Shown here: piece by piece, positions 1,561-14,863 of the stretch
How the letters are laid out: each line of letters begins with the position of its first letter
Position numbering within the stretch: the stretch's first letter is position 1
Assembly (NCBI GenBank): GCA_963805625.1
Contig: CAWDVE010000025.1
Coordinates: 1-64,000 of the forward strand
Direction: 5' to 3'
DNA length: 64,000 bases
DNA from: an uncultured Candidatus Rokubacteria bacterium
Lineage (GTDB): Bacteria; Methylomirabilota; Methylomirabilia; Rokubacteriales; DASRDR01
The notes under the pieces: model-generated
Seen by the model: the letters and a program-made list of their open reading frames with translations, nothing else
Told to the model about the DNA's origin: nothing
Database searches by the model: none
Position numbers and translations under genes: made by a program

Positions 1561-1636
1561 GGACGATTAGCTCAGTTGGCAGAGCACCGGCCTCACATGC
1601 CGGGGGTCGCAGGTTCAAGTCCTGCATCGTCCACCA
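1561..1636 (+). tRNA. tRNA-Val(CAC)
   Basis: 76-nt cloverleaf GGACGAT...ATCGTCC-A-CCA; anticodon arm CCGGC-CTCACAT-GCCGG; T-loop GTTCAAGT. Confidence 0.97.
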
Positions 1637-9597: not shown

Positions 9598-9703
9598 CGG
9601 CTCGATCCGCAACCACGCCGACGCGCTACAGCAACCTGCCCACGCTGTTCCAGCGGACCCGGTGAATCGCCGGCGTCGCCTCGCGGTATGCTCGGAGTCG
9701 GCC

Positions 9704-10537
9704 ATGAAGAAGGGCGCGGTACGGGACTCCACGGGATCCGGGAAGGCGAAGCGGCCGGCACGTCCGGCCTCGCGGGCGGCCGAGCTGCCCGACATGAGCG
9801 CGTACGGCCGGCTCGCCGAGTACAACCGGAAGCGCCACTTCGACGTCACGCCCGAGCCCCGGGGGACCGCACGGGCGCGCGAAGCGGGGCGGCCCCTCCA
9901 GTTCGTCGTCCAGAAGCACCGCGCCACCGCGCTCCACTACGACTTCCGCCTGGAGCATCGCGGGGTGATGCTCTCGTGGGCGGTTCCCAAGGGCCCGTCG
10001 CCCGATCCCGCCGTGAAGCGGCTGGCGATGGAGACCGAGCCGCACCCGATGGACTACAACCAGTTCGAGGGCGTGATCCCCGAGGGCGCGTACGGCGGCG
10101 GAACCGTGATGATCTGGGACAAGGGCGTGTGGGCGCCGATCGCCCAGGACCGGCTCGGGGACGAGGCCGAGGTCGACCGCCAGCTCGCGAAGGGTGACCT
10201 CAAGTTCGTGCTACTGGGAGAGAAGCTCCTCGGCTCGTGGGTTCTGGTCCGGACGCGCGGCGGCCGGCAGTGGCTCCTCATCAAGCACCGTGACGAGTAC
10301 GCGAGCAAGGAGGATCTCACGGTCTCGAAGCCCCGGTCGGTCGTGTCCGGGCGCACGATGGCCGAGATCGGCGGAGCCGCCGGCGCGAGCCCGCGCCAGC
10401 TCCAGCAAGCCGCCGGCGCCGATCCCGCCGCGCCGCCTCCGGCCTCGCGCCCTCGCCGGACGGCTGAGCCGGCGGCGCGGCGGCCGGCGACACCATCCCG
10501 GCCGCGCCGCCCCGCGGGCGCGTCTTCACGGAGCTAG
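9704..10537 (+). CDS. ligD: Stand-alone LigD 3'-phosphoesterase (PE) domain protein
   Basis: YNRKRHFDVTPEP; FVVQKHRATALHYDFRLE; SWAVPKGPS; HPMDY..FEG.IP...YGGGTVMIWD. Confidence 0.9.
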   Translation: MKKGAVRDSTGSGKAKRPARPASRAAELPDMSAYGRLAEYNRKRHFDVTPEPRGTARAREAGRPLQFVVQKHRATALHYDFRLEHRGVMLSWAVPKGPSPDPAVKRLAMETEPHPMDYNQFEGVIPEGAYGGGTVMIWDKGVWAPIAQDRLGDEAEVDRQLAKGDLKFVLLGEKLLGSWVLVRTRGGRQWLLIKHRDEYASKEDLTVSKPRSVVSGRTMAEIGGAAGASPRQLQQAAGADPAAPPPASRPRRTAEPAARRPATPSRPRRPAGASSRS

Positions 10538-10662
10538 GCGCGGCCTCGCGAGGTTCCCCGGCGGCTCGGCGACGGCGGTCGTCGGCCGGCTCGAAGGCCG
10601 CTCGATCGGCGGCCTCCCGCCAGACGGCCGCCTGGCCATGGGCCCGCGCGCCGTCGCTCTCC

Positions 10663-11583
10663 TTGCCGACGGACGCCGACACCGTGGAGATCCGCGCCGG
10701 CGAGCGCGCCGTCCGGCTCACCAATCTCCGCAAGGTGTTCTGGCCGGAGCTCGGGCTCACGAAGCGCGACCTGCTCCAGTACTACGCCGACGTGGCGCCC
10801 GTCCTGCTGCCGCATCTCCGGGACCGCGCAATGGTGATGAAACGCTACCCGAACGGAGCATCCCGGGCGTTCTTCTTCATGAAGCGGGTGCCCGAGCCTC
10901 ATCCGCCGTGGCTCGACCTCTGCCCGATCGAGCACAGCTCGGGCAGCGTCATCGACTTCCCCGTCGTCCAGGATCTGCTCTCGCTCCTCTGGGTGGTCAA
11001 CCTCGGGTGCATCGACCTCAACCAATGGTACGCCCAGTGCGACGACGTGGACCGGCCCGACTACGTCCACTTCGACCTCGATCCCGTGACCGGCGCGACC
11101 GCGGTGGCGTTCGACCGCCTGCGCGAGGCCGCGCTCACGGTGCGGGACGCCCTCGCGGGGCTGGACATGCCGGCCTACGTCAAAACCACGGGCTCCCGCG
11201 GGTTTCACGTGTACGTGCCGATCGTGCGGGGGCCGGCCCAGAAGGACGTCTGGGACTTCGCGAAGCGGGTCGCGCTGGCGCTCGCCGCGGCCCGTCCGGC
11301 GCTCCTGACCGCGGAGTACCGGATCCCGAAGCGGCCGGCGGGACGCGTCCTGGTCGACTACAACCAGAACGCCTGGGGGCGGACGCTGGCGTCCGTCTAT
11401 TCGGTCCGGCCTCATCCGCGCGCGCTCGTGTCGACGCCCGTCACGTGGGACGAGGTCGCGCGGGGCGTCCGGCTCGAGGACCTCCACATCGGGAACGTTC
11501 CCGCACGCGTGCGGGCGCGTGGCGACCTGTGGGCGCCGCTCCTCGCCGACAAGAAGCGGGTGCGCCTCCCGCCCGTGTCCTGA
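10663..11583 (+). CDS. ligD: Stand-alone LigD primase-polymerase domain protein
   Basis: LTNLRKVFWP..TKRDLLQYY; KRYPNG; FDLDP; KTTGSRGFHVY; VDYNQN..TLASVYSVR. Confidence 0.9.
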   Translation: MPTDADTVEIRAGERAVRLTNLRKVFWPELGLTKRDLLQYYADVAPVLLPHLRDRAMVMKRYPNGASRAFFFMKRVPEPHPPWLDLCPIEHSSGSVIDFPVVQDLLSLLWVVNLGCIDLNQWYAQCDDVDRPDYVHFDLDPVTGATAVAFDRLREAALTVRDALAGLDMPAYVKTTGSRGFHVYVPIVRGPAQKDVWDFAKRVALALAAARPALLTAEYRIPKRPAGRVLVDYNQNAWGRTLASVYSVRPHPRALVSTPVTWDEVARGVRLEDLHIGNVPARVRARGDLWAPLLADKKRVRLPPVS

Positions 11584-11605
11584 GCCGCGAGGGCGCCGCG
11601 GTGGG

Positions 11606-11803
11606 GTGATCCGCGTCGGGATCTCCGGCTGGCGCTACGGACCCTGGCGCGGAGTGTGGTATCCGGACGGGCTGGCCCAGCGGCGCGAGCTGGAGTTCTG
11701 CGGCCATCACTTCCCGACTGTGGAGATCAACGGGTCCTTCTACTCGCTCCAGCGCCCCGGGAGCTACGACGCGTGGTACCGCGCGACGCCCCCGGGCTTC
11801 GTC
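11606..11803 (+). pseudogene. DUF72 family N-terminal fragment
   Basis: IRVGISGWRY..W.GVWYP..TVEINGSFYSLQRP; cut off by the XRE module. Confidence 0.8.
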
Positions 11804-11832
11804 GTCGGCGGAGTCGCTCTTGAAGAAGCCAT

Positions 11833-11861
11833 GTGACAATCTATCTCTGTAGAGATATCAT
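11833..11861 (+). promoter_or_regulatory. Promoter with palindromic operator upstream of the XRE gene
   Basis: GTGACA-N17-TATCAT with perfect inverted repeat TATCTCT-GT-AGAGATA (11842-11857) between the boxes. Confidence 0.6.
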
Positions 11862-12063
11862 GAGCGCTAAGAGACTGAGCGTGGCGATTCGACAGGCACG
11901 AGAGCAGAAGGGCCTGAGCCAAGCGGAGCTCGCGAAGCGGGCGAAGGTGGCGCAGGGATACATCTCCGATCTCGAGGCTGGCGGCAAGAAGAACCCGGGC
12001 ATCGATGTGCTGAAGCGTCTCGCCAAGGCCCTCGGCGTGCCGGTGGCGAAGCTGCTGGGGTGA
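11860..12063 (+). CDS. XRE-family HTH transcriptional regulator
   Basis: IRQAREQKGLSQAELAKRAKVAQGYISDLEAG..NPGIDVLKRLAKALGV. Confidence 0.9.
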   Translation: MSAKRLSVAIRQAREQKGLSQAELAKRAKVAQGYISDLEAGGKKNPGIDVLKRLAKALGVPVAKLLG

Positions 12064-12805: not shown

Positions 12806-12912
12806 GGAATGAAGAAGACGCCCCGCGCGGTGGTTGCGACACTGCTGGAGCCGGGCCGAGGACGACCTCGCGCCGCGGATGGCGGCGCTGGAGCTGTGAG
12901 GAAGGACTAGTC

Positions 12913-13242
12913 ATGGCACGAGGACTGACCGGACCACGTGGAGTGAAGGGTGCGCGGGGTCAACGCGGGGGCGTCGGACTGACAGGACCTCCGGGCCCGC
13001 CTGGACCTCCCGGGATCGAGGGCATGCGAGGCGTCACGGGAGCCAGAGGCGCCAGGGGTGCCACCGGGCGACAGCGCGTCATCACGAAAGTGAGCCGGAA
13101 ACTCACGATCCGGATGATCGAACACCTAGATTGTGAGATGAGCGCGGTGCACAAGGCCCTGGAGACGCAACTCATCCGGATCGCGCAGATTCAGCAGCAG
13201 TTGGACGAGCTCCGCGCGAGGGTGGGCGCTGAAGGTCGATAG
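12913..13242 (+). CDS. Short collagen-like protein (17 Gly-X-Y triplets + C-terminal coiled coil)
   Basis: GLTGPRGVKGARGQRGGVGLTGPPGPPGPPGIEGMRGVTGARGARGATGRQ; AAGGA RBS. Confidence 0.8.
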   Translation: MARGLTGPRGVKGARGQRGGVGLTGPPGPPGPPGIEGMRGVTGARGARGATGRQRVITKVSRKLTIRMIEHLDCEMSAVHKALETQLIRIAQIQQQLDELRARVGAEGR

Positions 13243-13329
13243 GGGATGCGCCATGATCGCCGCCGTCTACGCCTGCACGGCGACCGCGCCGCACGGATGG
13301 CGGCGCTGAAGCTGTGAGTCTTGGCTCCG

Positions 13330-13473
13330 CTAGATGGGTTGTGGCTCGCCACCGGACAAGAAGAAGTCCGTCGGCCCAGCGTACAGGACCTCATGCGCCA
13401 GGTCCTCCGGGGTCAGGACGCGCTCGATGCGGGGCGGCTCGTAGGGTGGGGCAATCGGGGGCGTCTCGGCCAT
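13330..13473 (-). CDS. 47-aa RiPP-precursor-like peptide (not in the ORF track)
   Basis: AAGGAGG RBS; MAETPPIAPPYEPPRIERVLTPEDLAHEVLYAGPTDFFLSGGEPQPI*. Confidence 0.6.
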   Translation of the reverse strand: MAETPPIAPPYEPPRIERVLTPEDLAHEVLYAGPTDFFLSGGEPQPI

Positions 13474-13556
13474 GGGGGGCGGTCCTCCTTGGGTGGGGTG
13501 GGTGGGGGCAGGCTATCACGGCATCGCGGTTCAGGCGACGCGGGGAGGGGAGACTG

Positions 13557-14745
13557 ATGGGCGCGATCTATCGCCCGAAGTACCAGGGCGGCACGGGGTG
13601 ACGCAAGTCTCCACCGTGTGGTGGGTGCGCTTCCGCCAGCACGGCAAGACGCTCCGGCAATCCGCGGAGACGACCTCGGAGGCGAAGGCCCGAGCGTTTC
13701 TGCGGGAGCGTGAGGGGAAGGTGGCCCTCAACATCCCGGTCAACGTCGAAGCGGACCGGCTGACGCTGGGCGAGGCCGCCGACGTGATCCGGAACGACTA
13801 CACCGCGAACGGCCACAAGTCCGCGGGACACCCTGGAGCTCCGGCTCACACATCTGCTCGCGCACTTCGGCGCCGCCACGCGGCTGAGTCGGATCACCAC
13901 CGGCCACGTGGAGCACTACAAGGTCGCTCGGCTCGCCAAGCCCGTCACCCTGCCGGCGACGAAAACGCTCCGCGTCGAGTCGCCCGCCCGACCTCCGAAG
14001 CTCACGTCGTCCGCTACCGTCAACCGCGAGATCGCCATCCTCGCCCGGATGGGGTCGCTGGCCCGGCGCCAGCACGGGCTCGCGGTGCCGTTCATGGTCG
14101 AGAAGCTCAAGGAACGGAATGCCCGGGAGGGTTTTTCGAGGAGGCGGCGTTCCTGGCGGTCTGTCGCCTGCTCCGCCCGGAGGTTGCGGCGCTCGCGACG
14201 GTGGGGAACCTCACCGGCTGGCGCAGTCGGAACTCCGCTCTCGCCAGTGGCGCCACGTTGACTTCGGCGCCGGCTGGAAGCGGCTTGAGCCCGAGGAGAC
14301 GAAGAACCGGGAGGGGCGCATGTTCCCCCTGATCCCCGAGCTCCGGGCGGTCCTCCAGGCGCAGCGCACGCGCGTGGAGGCGCTCCAGACGGCGACGGGC
14401 CAGGTGATCCCGTGGGCGTTCTGCCGGGACAACGGCGCCCCGGTGGGCGACTTCAAGAAGGCGTGGACGACCGCGCGGATCAAGGCCGGCGTCCCCGGGC
14501 GGCTCTTCCACGCCTTCCGGCGGACCGCCGTCCGCAACCTGATCCGCGCGGGGATCCCGGAGACGGTCGCGATGAAACTAACGGGCCACCGAACGGCCGT
14601 GTTCCAACGCTACGCGATTGTGGAAGAGGGGATGCTCCAGGAGGCGGGCGCCCGCCTCGCGGCGGCTGGGCTCGCCGGGGGTGCCGGGGGCAAGAGTGGC
14701 AAAGACAGGCGGAGAAGTGCAAAGTCGCCGCACTTGCCCCGCTGA
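13557..14745 (+). pseudogene. Island tyrosine integrase (frameshifted)
   Basis: MGAIYRPKY..WWVRF; ATVNREIAIL; TGWR; ETKNREGR; [22 protein letters not shown]; several frameshifts. Confidence 0.88.
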
Positions 14746-14777: not shown

Positions 14778-14823
14778 CCTCACATGCCGGGGGTCGCAGA
14801 TTCAAGTCCTGCATCGTCCACCA
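14778..14823 (+). repeat. attR: duplicate of the tRNA-Val 3' half starting at the anticodon loop
   Basis: CCTCACATGCCGGGGGTCGCAGATTCAAGTCCTGCATCGTCCACCA matches 1591-1636 at 45/46. Confidence 0.95.
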
Positions 14824-14828
14824 GCTCA

Positions 14829-14863
14829 AGCCGCGGGGTTGCATTGGCACCCCGCGGTTCTTC
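14829..14863 (+). terminator. Intrinsic terminator (probably the displaced native tRNA terminator)
   Basis: CCGCGGGG..CCCCGCGG followed by TTCTTCT. Confidence 0.65.

Follow-up and report, generated by a model that had tools for sequence, protein, structure and literature searches.

A putative RiPP precursor cassette on a decayed tRNA-Val island of a Rokubacteria genome with candidate maturation enzymes on another contig

The 47-aa peptide gene described here, located in a 64,000-nt stretch of contig C25 of the Rokubacteria genome G000 (hereafter the window), is very probably the precursor gene of a peptide maturation system consisting of a PqqD-family RiPP recognition element (RRE), an HprK-like kinase, and a radical SAM (rSAM) domain fused to a nucleotidyltransferase (NTase) domain, NTP_transf_5. 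We consider it moderately probable that the gene forms an accessory cassette for a precursor within a decayed tRNA-Val island, and that its product is processed in trans by the RRE, kinase, and rSAM/NTase encoded on contig C13 of the same genome. The positions of the features are listed in Table 1.

Table 1. Features of the window around the precursor peptide gene and at the boundaries of the island
Feature	Position	Strand	Basis or remark
tRNA-Val(CAC)	1561..1636	plus	likely left boundary of the ~13-kb island
XRE-type HTH regulator of the element	11860..12063	plus	
Repeated scar-like element	13253..13318	plus	MIAAVYA... start, then 24-nt motif; convergent with the precursor
Precursor peptide gene, 47 aa	13330..13473	minus	ORF, homologues, genome profile scan
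Variable 14-residue tail, putative core	13333..13374	minus	T35 and S40 are candidate kinase sites
Conserved 23-residue leader block, Y11-G33	13375..13443	minus	alignment and profiles
AAGGAGG ribosome-binding site	13484..13490	minus	10 nt before the ATG
Extended -10-like motif GTGATAGCCT	13510..13519	minus	conserved, common to orphan copies
Tyrosine integrase, broken by frameshifts	13557..14745	plus	Pfam Phage_integrase; head-to-head with the precursor
Copy of the tRNA-Val 3' end	14778..14829	plus	att-like right boundary, 52 bp, 94% identical

The ORF, its ribosome-binding site, and the peptide sequence quoted in an earlier sequence-only reading of this DNA were all present as stated, and the ORF is indeed divergent from the integrase, whose ATG lies 83 nt away on the opposite strand. 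The leader block opens with YEPPRI, a YxxPx[LVI] RRE motif, and closes with E-x-x-Y-A-G. YEPPRI also fits [Y/W]xxPx[L/V/I/F/A], given as the RRE-binding motif in PMC13381572, which agrees with the assignment of the peptide to the RiPP-type precursors. The putative border between leader and core was set from the conservation boundary only. Judged from its sequence, the GTGATAGCCT motif is likely the cassette's own promoter; a scan of positions 13200-13700 for sigma-70 consensus promoters and terminators called nothing, this motif included. Two RNA runs contained only 0.05 of the sampled words, a share that carries no weight for or against expression.

The 24-nt motif of the scar-like element occurs twice in the window (12877-12900 and 13295-13318) and six more times on contig C10, and a precursor lies directly after four of these eight copies in G000. 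Elsewhere in the genus, two copies were found in G013, one in G004, and none in 12 other genomes. The motif recurs between cargo genes of these elements, often after an MIAA[IV]YA... start, and a short collagen-repeat gene of 109 aa (12913-13242) lies between the two window copies. This element could be the collapsed remains of a recombinase gene, or else a site of cassette exchange.

A single-sequence search with the window peptide returned 71 homologues at E<=0.01, the profile search gave 637 clusters at 50% identity, and G000 contains four paralogues. Since the leader also has a dN/dS of 0.17 over 17 orphan copies, the ORF is not a chance reading frame. The family consensus is a leader of the form YxxPx[IV]E..L[TS]..[DE]L..E..YAG followed by a short variable tail, with a 23-residue block, YEPPR[IV]ERVLTPEDLEREVLYAG, common to the family. 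Within the motif Y11-E-P-P14-R-I16, Y11 and P14 are invariant in the family alignment A2. The conserved leader and variable core anticipated for the homologues were therefore both found.

The precursor family has no name in curated libraries and is in that sense hidden. Searches of NCBIfam and Pfam with 59 aligned members assigned them to no family and gave two single-member matches only (E 0.05-0.1), and neither PHROGs nor the PDB sequences provided a name for the window peptide. IMG/VR gave three partial matches covering residues 7-22 only, none of which passes the precursor profile. The ESM Atlas contained unnamed matches at 0.89 and, as a lead only, lasso-leader-like clusters at 0.83-0.84. 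No description of the precursor family or of the rSAM/NTP_transf_5 fusion was found in a literature search covering a minority of subscription journals; such loci may be present in the supplementary cluster tables and RRE tree of PMC13381572. In one protein, P0203, the leader of the family is fused to a domain resembling those in the precursors of a lasso-type cluster on contig C16 of G000.

The maturation genes were identified next to homologues of the window gene. Eight genomes of the same genus carry arrays of three to five precursors directly before the genes for the PqqD-family RRE, the HprK-like kinase, and the rSAM/NTP_transf_5 fusion of ~737 aa; in G012, the fusion gene is on another contig. 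At metagenome loci, an RRE or kinase gene lies directly downstream of the precursor in 34 of 65 cases, and 15 of the other 31 loci have less than 300 bp of downstream sequence. In genomes titled as other taxa, which include Acidobacteriota, Gemmatimonadota, and Opitutales, the precursor lies directly before the RRE or kinase gene at 8 of the 9 scored loci, with L096 left unscored as it has no precursor above the threshold. The proximity of homologues to PqqD and rSAM genes, which had been proposed as a check, was thus confirmed. The bins of two operon loci, L091 and L096, bear the names Bifidobacterium breve and Synechococcus, probably through misbinning, because L091 is nearly the same as the metagenome locus L147.

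The expected partners were PqqD-like proteins with either lasso or classical SPASM enzymes. PqqD and rSAM held up, and lasso and SPASM were replaced by an RRE, an HprK-like kinase, and an EpeE-like rSAM/nucleotidyltransferase fusion. Cleavage by a peptidase-containing (C39) transporter did not find support either: no peptidase or transporter gene occurs in the operon on C13, in those of the same genus, or in the other examined operons, the only C39 match in G000 is a stand-alone 184-aa protein, and no double-glycine leader model matches the peptide.

The precursor and its enzymes share a distribution. In a sample of the phylum, the precursor and the cognate RRE co-occur in the same 8 of 201 genomes, and in the bacterial family 9 of 21 genomes contain the fusion and 10 an intact precursor, although these genomes are kin, so the counts are not independent. 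The extra genome, G006, is 68% complete and has a precursor and no maturase match. The genomes G004, G005, and G008, which are without the maturase, contain 5, 2, and 4 related integrases and 0, 0, and 1 (frameshifted) precursors, respectively, which among related genomes amounts to a pattern rather than a test.

This context also bears on the possibility that the small divergent ORF is an integrase regulator, either excisionase-like or an anti-repressor, with an incidental likeness to RiPP leaders. In several elements the ORF does lie 75-90 nt head-to-head with recombinase starts, but only two of the six related integrases in G000 have the cassette, the ORF pairs with different recombinase starts, and it has no PHROG match, while the same leader stands directly before RREs in many taxa. 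This reading is largely refuted by the operon context and we consider it extremely improbable.

The 3 kb around the window precursor are free of RRE, kinase, and rSAM relatives, in line with the earlier claim that no maturase is near. In G000, the corresponding operon is intact at C13:237735-241110 and is 91-95% identical to that of G013; its kinase keeps the GEAGKST and DD motifs, and its NTase keeps DxD. The supposition that the machinery is encoded elsewhere in the genome has therefore gained a concrete candidate, which would act on the window peptide in trans. The precursor array of this operon has been deleted. The gap between the upstream aminotransferase gene and the RRE gene on C13 is 142 bp long; in it, the conserved promoter region runs directly into the second half of a single precursor, with the start codon and RRE motif missing and the junction at C13:241193. 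A 151-nt contig from run X2 (study P2) spans this junction with 0 differences and with 67 and 83 letters on either side; it is the only bridge, since the contigs of run X1 end there (1857-1862) and so neither support nor refute the junction. A profile scan of the whole assembly detected exactly five intact precursors, that of the window and four on C10, all of them orphans, in an assembly (99.9% complete, 6.3% contamination, 28 contigs) that could still have a missed or foreign precursor copy.

The fate of the maturase genes is relevant to a rival explanation, according to which the window gene is a true family precursor but a silent passenger, with a pathway that recently lost its substrates and is near decay and an orphan that either goes unexpressed or is rejected by the C13 enzymes. 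Omega for the three maturase genes is 0.28 on the G000 branch (36.5 non-synonymous and 51.5 synonymous changes), far below neutral (p=3e-9). Two relatives that have arrays give 0.25 and 0.18, a difference from G000 that is not significant (p=0.23), which speaks against this rival; in its favor, the rSAM/NTase alone has 21 non-synonymous to 28 synonymous changes in G000, above the relatives (9/18 and 24.5/65.5). Moreover, the deletion remnant looks fresh and well preserved, and the loss of the array may be recent. Because a recent deletion gives the same result, omega cannot separate ongoing use from recent orphaning. A passenger is also favored by the decay of the surrounding element, with its frameshifted integrase and truncated DUF72 gene, and by the existence of broken orphans (L157, L110, G003, G008); against it, the ORF, ribosome-binding site, and promoter-like motif of the window gene are intact within this decayed element, and four more intact orphans are present in G000.

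The leader was compared with the 31 array leaders of the same genus, from which it differs at a mean of 6.7 of 23 positions and a minimum of 4, compared with a mean of 4.1 within arrays. All array-invariant positions are kept in the window leader. E23 and A26 occur in none of the 31 genus array leaders, which would suit a peptide that the C13 enzymes do not accept, but both residues are found in other taxa, in leaders next to an RRE (L114, L118, L124, L080). We judge the silent passenger unlikely, and processing of the window peptide in this cell by the C13 enzymes appears likely. In a 69-column tree, built on rows of three groups without duplicate loci, the window leader falls outside the branch holding 29 of the 31 array leaders (support 93/94); therefore, it is not the host's lost array in a new location. 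Its sequence places the leader in an older, separate lineage with a putative fit to the C13 enzymes. The orphans cluster apart from the host arrays (7 label changes versus 21.3 in shuffled data), and the tree data (69 columns, 7 changes, p-AU 0.34) neither support nor reject that the orphans arose once.

Structure prediction of the C13 RRE with the window peptide gave weak support for a complex, with a score of 0.55 compared with 0.08 for the best control, a value which likeness to solved RRE-leader complexes alone may explain. Of 157 solved pairs, 116 reached the mark for this score, as did 2 of 215 mismatched ones, and the range at or below 0.60 contained only 18 solved pairs and both mismatches. 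The runs agreed in at least 85% of contacts, with a partner pLDDT of at least 56.

The window gene is placed near the right end of the ~13-kb island, because the tRNA-Val gene and the copy of its 3' end mark the putative boundaries. The variable cargo, which includes the precursor, lies between the HTH regulator and the integrase. Other cargo (9662-11836) comprises genes for LigD phosphoesterase and primase-polymerase, which are separate, as well as a DUF72 gene truncated immediately ahead of the HTH regulator. The integrase frameshifts were judged against an intact 393-aa sister on C13, and with the integrase broken, present mobility of this copy is not demonstrable from it. In two sister elements that are empty, the MIAA... 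element abuts the ribosome site of the integrase, while in the window ~270 bp with the precursor lie between them. G000 has two tRNA-Val(CAC) genes, the one in the window and one at C13:14205-14280, each with a related integrase element; the C13 element has an intact integrase and no precursor. Given the contamination of 6.3%, two strains may have been binned together.

The same genus contains 11 short-leader orphan sites (the window, L001, L002, L003, two in L044, L034, and L045-L048), with the 3 kb around each of them free of RRE, kinase, and rSAM relatives. Of the 11, 9 lie no more than 3.2 kb from a tRNA gene or att copy, 6 are head-to-head with an integrase start or fragment, and all 11 have one or the other, which bears out the proposed association with mobile DNA. 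None of the eight operon loci (L035-L042) has a tRNA. Since four long-leader orphans (L050-L053) have neither tRNA nor integrase, not every orphan is element-borne. At L003, a near-complete element at tRNA-Leu contains an intact integrase, an HTH regulator, a primase, a helicase, and an internal-virion-like gene. This sister may be a PICI-like element or phage satellite, a class marked by a tRNA att site, an integrase, a regulator, a primase-helicase, and the lack of a full structural module; the element in the window keeps only the att site, the HTH regulator, and the broken integrase. Near-identical peptides occur at different tRNA sites across genomes, as at L001 (tRNA-Ala) and L045 (tRNA-Met), with 100/99 support.

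A second conserved orphan site was observed at L050:8008-9574, L053:7912-9457, and L161:4551-6090, where one long-leader precursor lies directly after a ~465-aa PhyH dioxygenase gene. The C-terminal half of the dioxygenase gave a weak match to HprK-like queries at two of these loci, and the protein is possibly a second tailoring enzyme.

The tails follow a simple rule. Not one of 86 operon, 83 short-leader, and 43 other tails lacks both Ser and Thr, compared with 11.3, 6.6, and 6.9 expected from pooled shuffles, so that Ser or Thr is present in 212 of 212 tails. The 50%-identity set gave the same result, with Ser or Thr in 128 of 128 tails, none lacking versus 17.8 expected, and 0 of 5000 shuffles as extreme; this set consists of 144 proteins minus 16 with the motif absent or a length outside the limits, and the sets of 212 and 128 overlap in part and contain relatives. 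As a control, the variable N-terminus of the operon copies is without Ser and Thr in 9 of 82 cases versus 9.2 expected, i.e., it follows no such rule, and no comparable rule was found for other residue classes, except for Asp in short-leader tails. The presence of Ser or Thr in every tail fits a kinase substrate. Array tails show no enrichment of [ST]D, of [ST]xD (16/86 versus 13.7 shuffled), or of a terminal Ser or Thr (17/86 versus 20.7 shuffled). Cys is absent from 169 tails and occurs in 5 of 128 in the wider set.

The short-leader orphan tails are more acidic, with [ST]xD in 41 of 83 versus 22.5 in shuffled tails, unlike array tails. Together with their separate clustering, their own promoter-like motif, and their place in the variable cargo slot of integrase/primase elements, this could indicate that the orphan works for the element against the host, either as a decoy or hijacking substrate that occupies the RRE or through an element-specific product for signaling or interference. 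A pure decoy would not need the Ser/Thr rule, which is kept in 83 of 83 tails as expected of a substrate. Furthermore, many copies persist beside dead integrase remnants, which fits a benefit to the host, and no direct evidence of conflict was found. We therefore regard such a role as improbable.

Starting from the observed family, operon, deletion, orphan positions, and Ser/Thr rule, we infer the following steps for a cassette that is processed in trans. The cassette would be transcribed from its own conserved promoter-like motif, and the C13 RRE would bind YEPPRI. The kinase would then phosphorylate a Ser or Thr of the tail, T35 or S40, as LppK and PsmK do; if the peptide is processed at all, such phosphorylation is quite likely. 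The NTP_transf_5 domain would decorate that phosphate, as PsmN does with a hexose, and the EpeE-like rSAM domain would add a further radical change, for which the near-invariant E-x-x-Y-A-G junction is a guessed site (crosslink or cleavage). Because the rSAM domain has no H-donor cysteine, EpeE-type epimerization is probably not involved. Host proteins would handle leader removal and export, should these occur, since the operon has none for these steps.

The closest known systems were compared with these loci. The LPP system (LppA/B/K/S/D/N, PMC13381572) shares a discrete RRE, a YxxP leader, an HprK-like kinase, an NTP transferase yet to be characterized (here as a fusion), a variable C-terminus, and the lack of a lasso cyclase; in that source, LppK phosphorylates Ser3 of the core, and activity of LppN was not detected. 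However, LPP operons have a SpI-like leader peptidase and an MsbA-like transporter, both missing here, and their leader, YxxPxVLxHQxIxFETxxS, is unlike the YEPPR[IV] block, so the LPP reading was rejected. The NTase is here fused to an EpeE-like rSAM domain, the tails are short (mostly 5-14 aa) with Ser/Thr at no fixed position, and the titles of the loci are not Bacillota but Rokubacteria/Methylomirabilia, Acidobacteriota, and Gemmatimonadota. Phospho-glycosylated lasso peptides (pseudomycoidin PsmK/PsmN, paeninodin PadeK) share the DD of the kinase, the DxD of the NTase, and the RRE motif of the leader. According to PMC6993621, PsmK phosphorylates a Ser, PsmN is needed for the hexose on that phosphate, and both need such aspartates. 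The lasso reading was rejected, as the macrolactam cyclase and the B2 protease are absent from the C13 and same-genus operons, and no C-terminal Ser rule applies; genes resembling asparagine synthase flank a few loci in other taxa (L082, L091).

Prochlorosins (ProcM/ProcA; PMC10783134) share a conserved leader, a hypervariable core, precursors scattered from one maturase, and recombinases and integrases reported nearby. Lanthipeptide chemistry, a Nif11 or double-Gly leader, and Cys-containing cores are absent here, while the orphans lie head-to-head with integrases at tRNA sites, and the G000 maturase has no intact adjacent precursor. Over its full length (residues 17-305), the rSAM domain is structurally closest to EpeE/YydG (PDB 8AI1-8AI6; PMC13012085), with a matching C-terminal cysteine pattern. 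However, the rSAM domain scores 74-76 bits versus a cut-off of 300 and is fused to NTP_transf_5, and the position equivalent to C223, the H-donor of EpeE in that source, located from wild-type versus Cys-to-Ala chains, is Asn, Pro, or Thr in the 13 aligned homologues; the epipeptide reading was rejected on the absence of this cysteine. In NCBIfam scans of the G009 and G013 orthologues, HPr-rel-A (TIGR04352 kinase, TIGR04353 PqqD) came out best for both kinases and one of the two RREs, with scores below the cut-offs (60-64 versus 200 and 28-33 versus 35). The enzymes thus resemble those of LPP and phospho-lasso systems, and the scattered precursors resemble prochlorosins, but a defining feature of each is lacking; the integrase-linked orphans and the emptied operon are special here.

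As a broader proposal, which we put forward tentatively and with slightly less than even confidence, satellite-like elements of one Rokubacteria genus carry plug-in cassettes (promoter, leader, and hypervariable Ser/Thr tail) for a host pathway, the substrates in G000 are all element-borne, and the fusion implies an undescribed peptide chemistry. If this holds, a natural RiPP pathway would be split between vertically inherited chromosomal enzymes and horizontally acquired substrates on mobile DNA, with the split complete in one genome, and the part that scattered precursors such as those of prochlorosins play in evolution would become directly testable. The 637 clusters define a precursor family that escapes Pfam and NCBIfam, and the rSAM-nucleotidyltransferase fusion, whose substrate rule is simple, bears on the role of NTP_transf_5 in peptide clusters. 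Cluster-centered mining would label the C13 operon as precursor-less and overlook the scattered peptides.

G000 also contains six other PqqD-family matches, which weighs against the assignment of the window peptide to C13. Three more sets of PqqD, HprK-like, and NTP_transf_5 genes were observed at C17:256768-263163, C24:97478-103712, and C21:336610-341071, two of them beside glycosyltransferase-like genes, and no precursor of the window family lies near them. An RRE cluster at C12:71538-78961 combines PqqD, an HprK-like gene, ferritin-like-looking genes, and a convergent NTP_transf_5 gene with a Cys/Trp-tailed peptide of 48 aa (73320-73466) that has a YxxPxI motif. The lasso-type cluster at C16:412426-416230 has an RRE, a B2-like protein, an asparagine-synthase-like cyclase, and an adjacent HprK-like gene, and its two apparent precursors of 162-177 aa consist of a YxxPxL leader and a longer domain, which we take to resemble a peptidase-S74-type chaperone.
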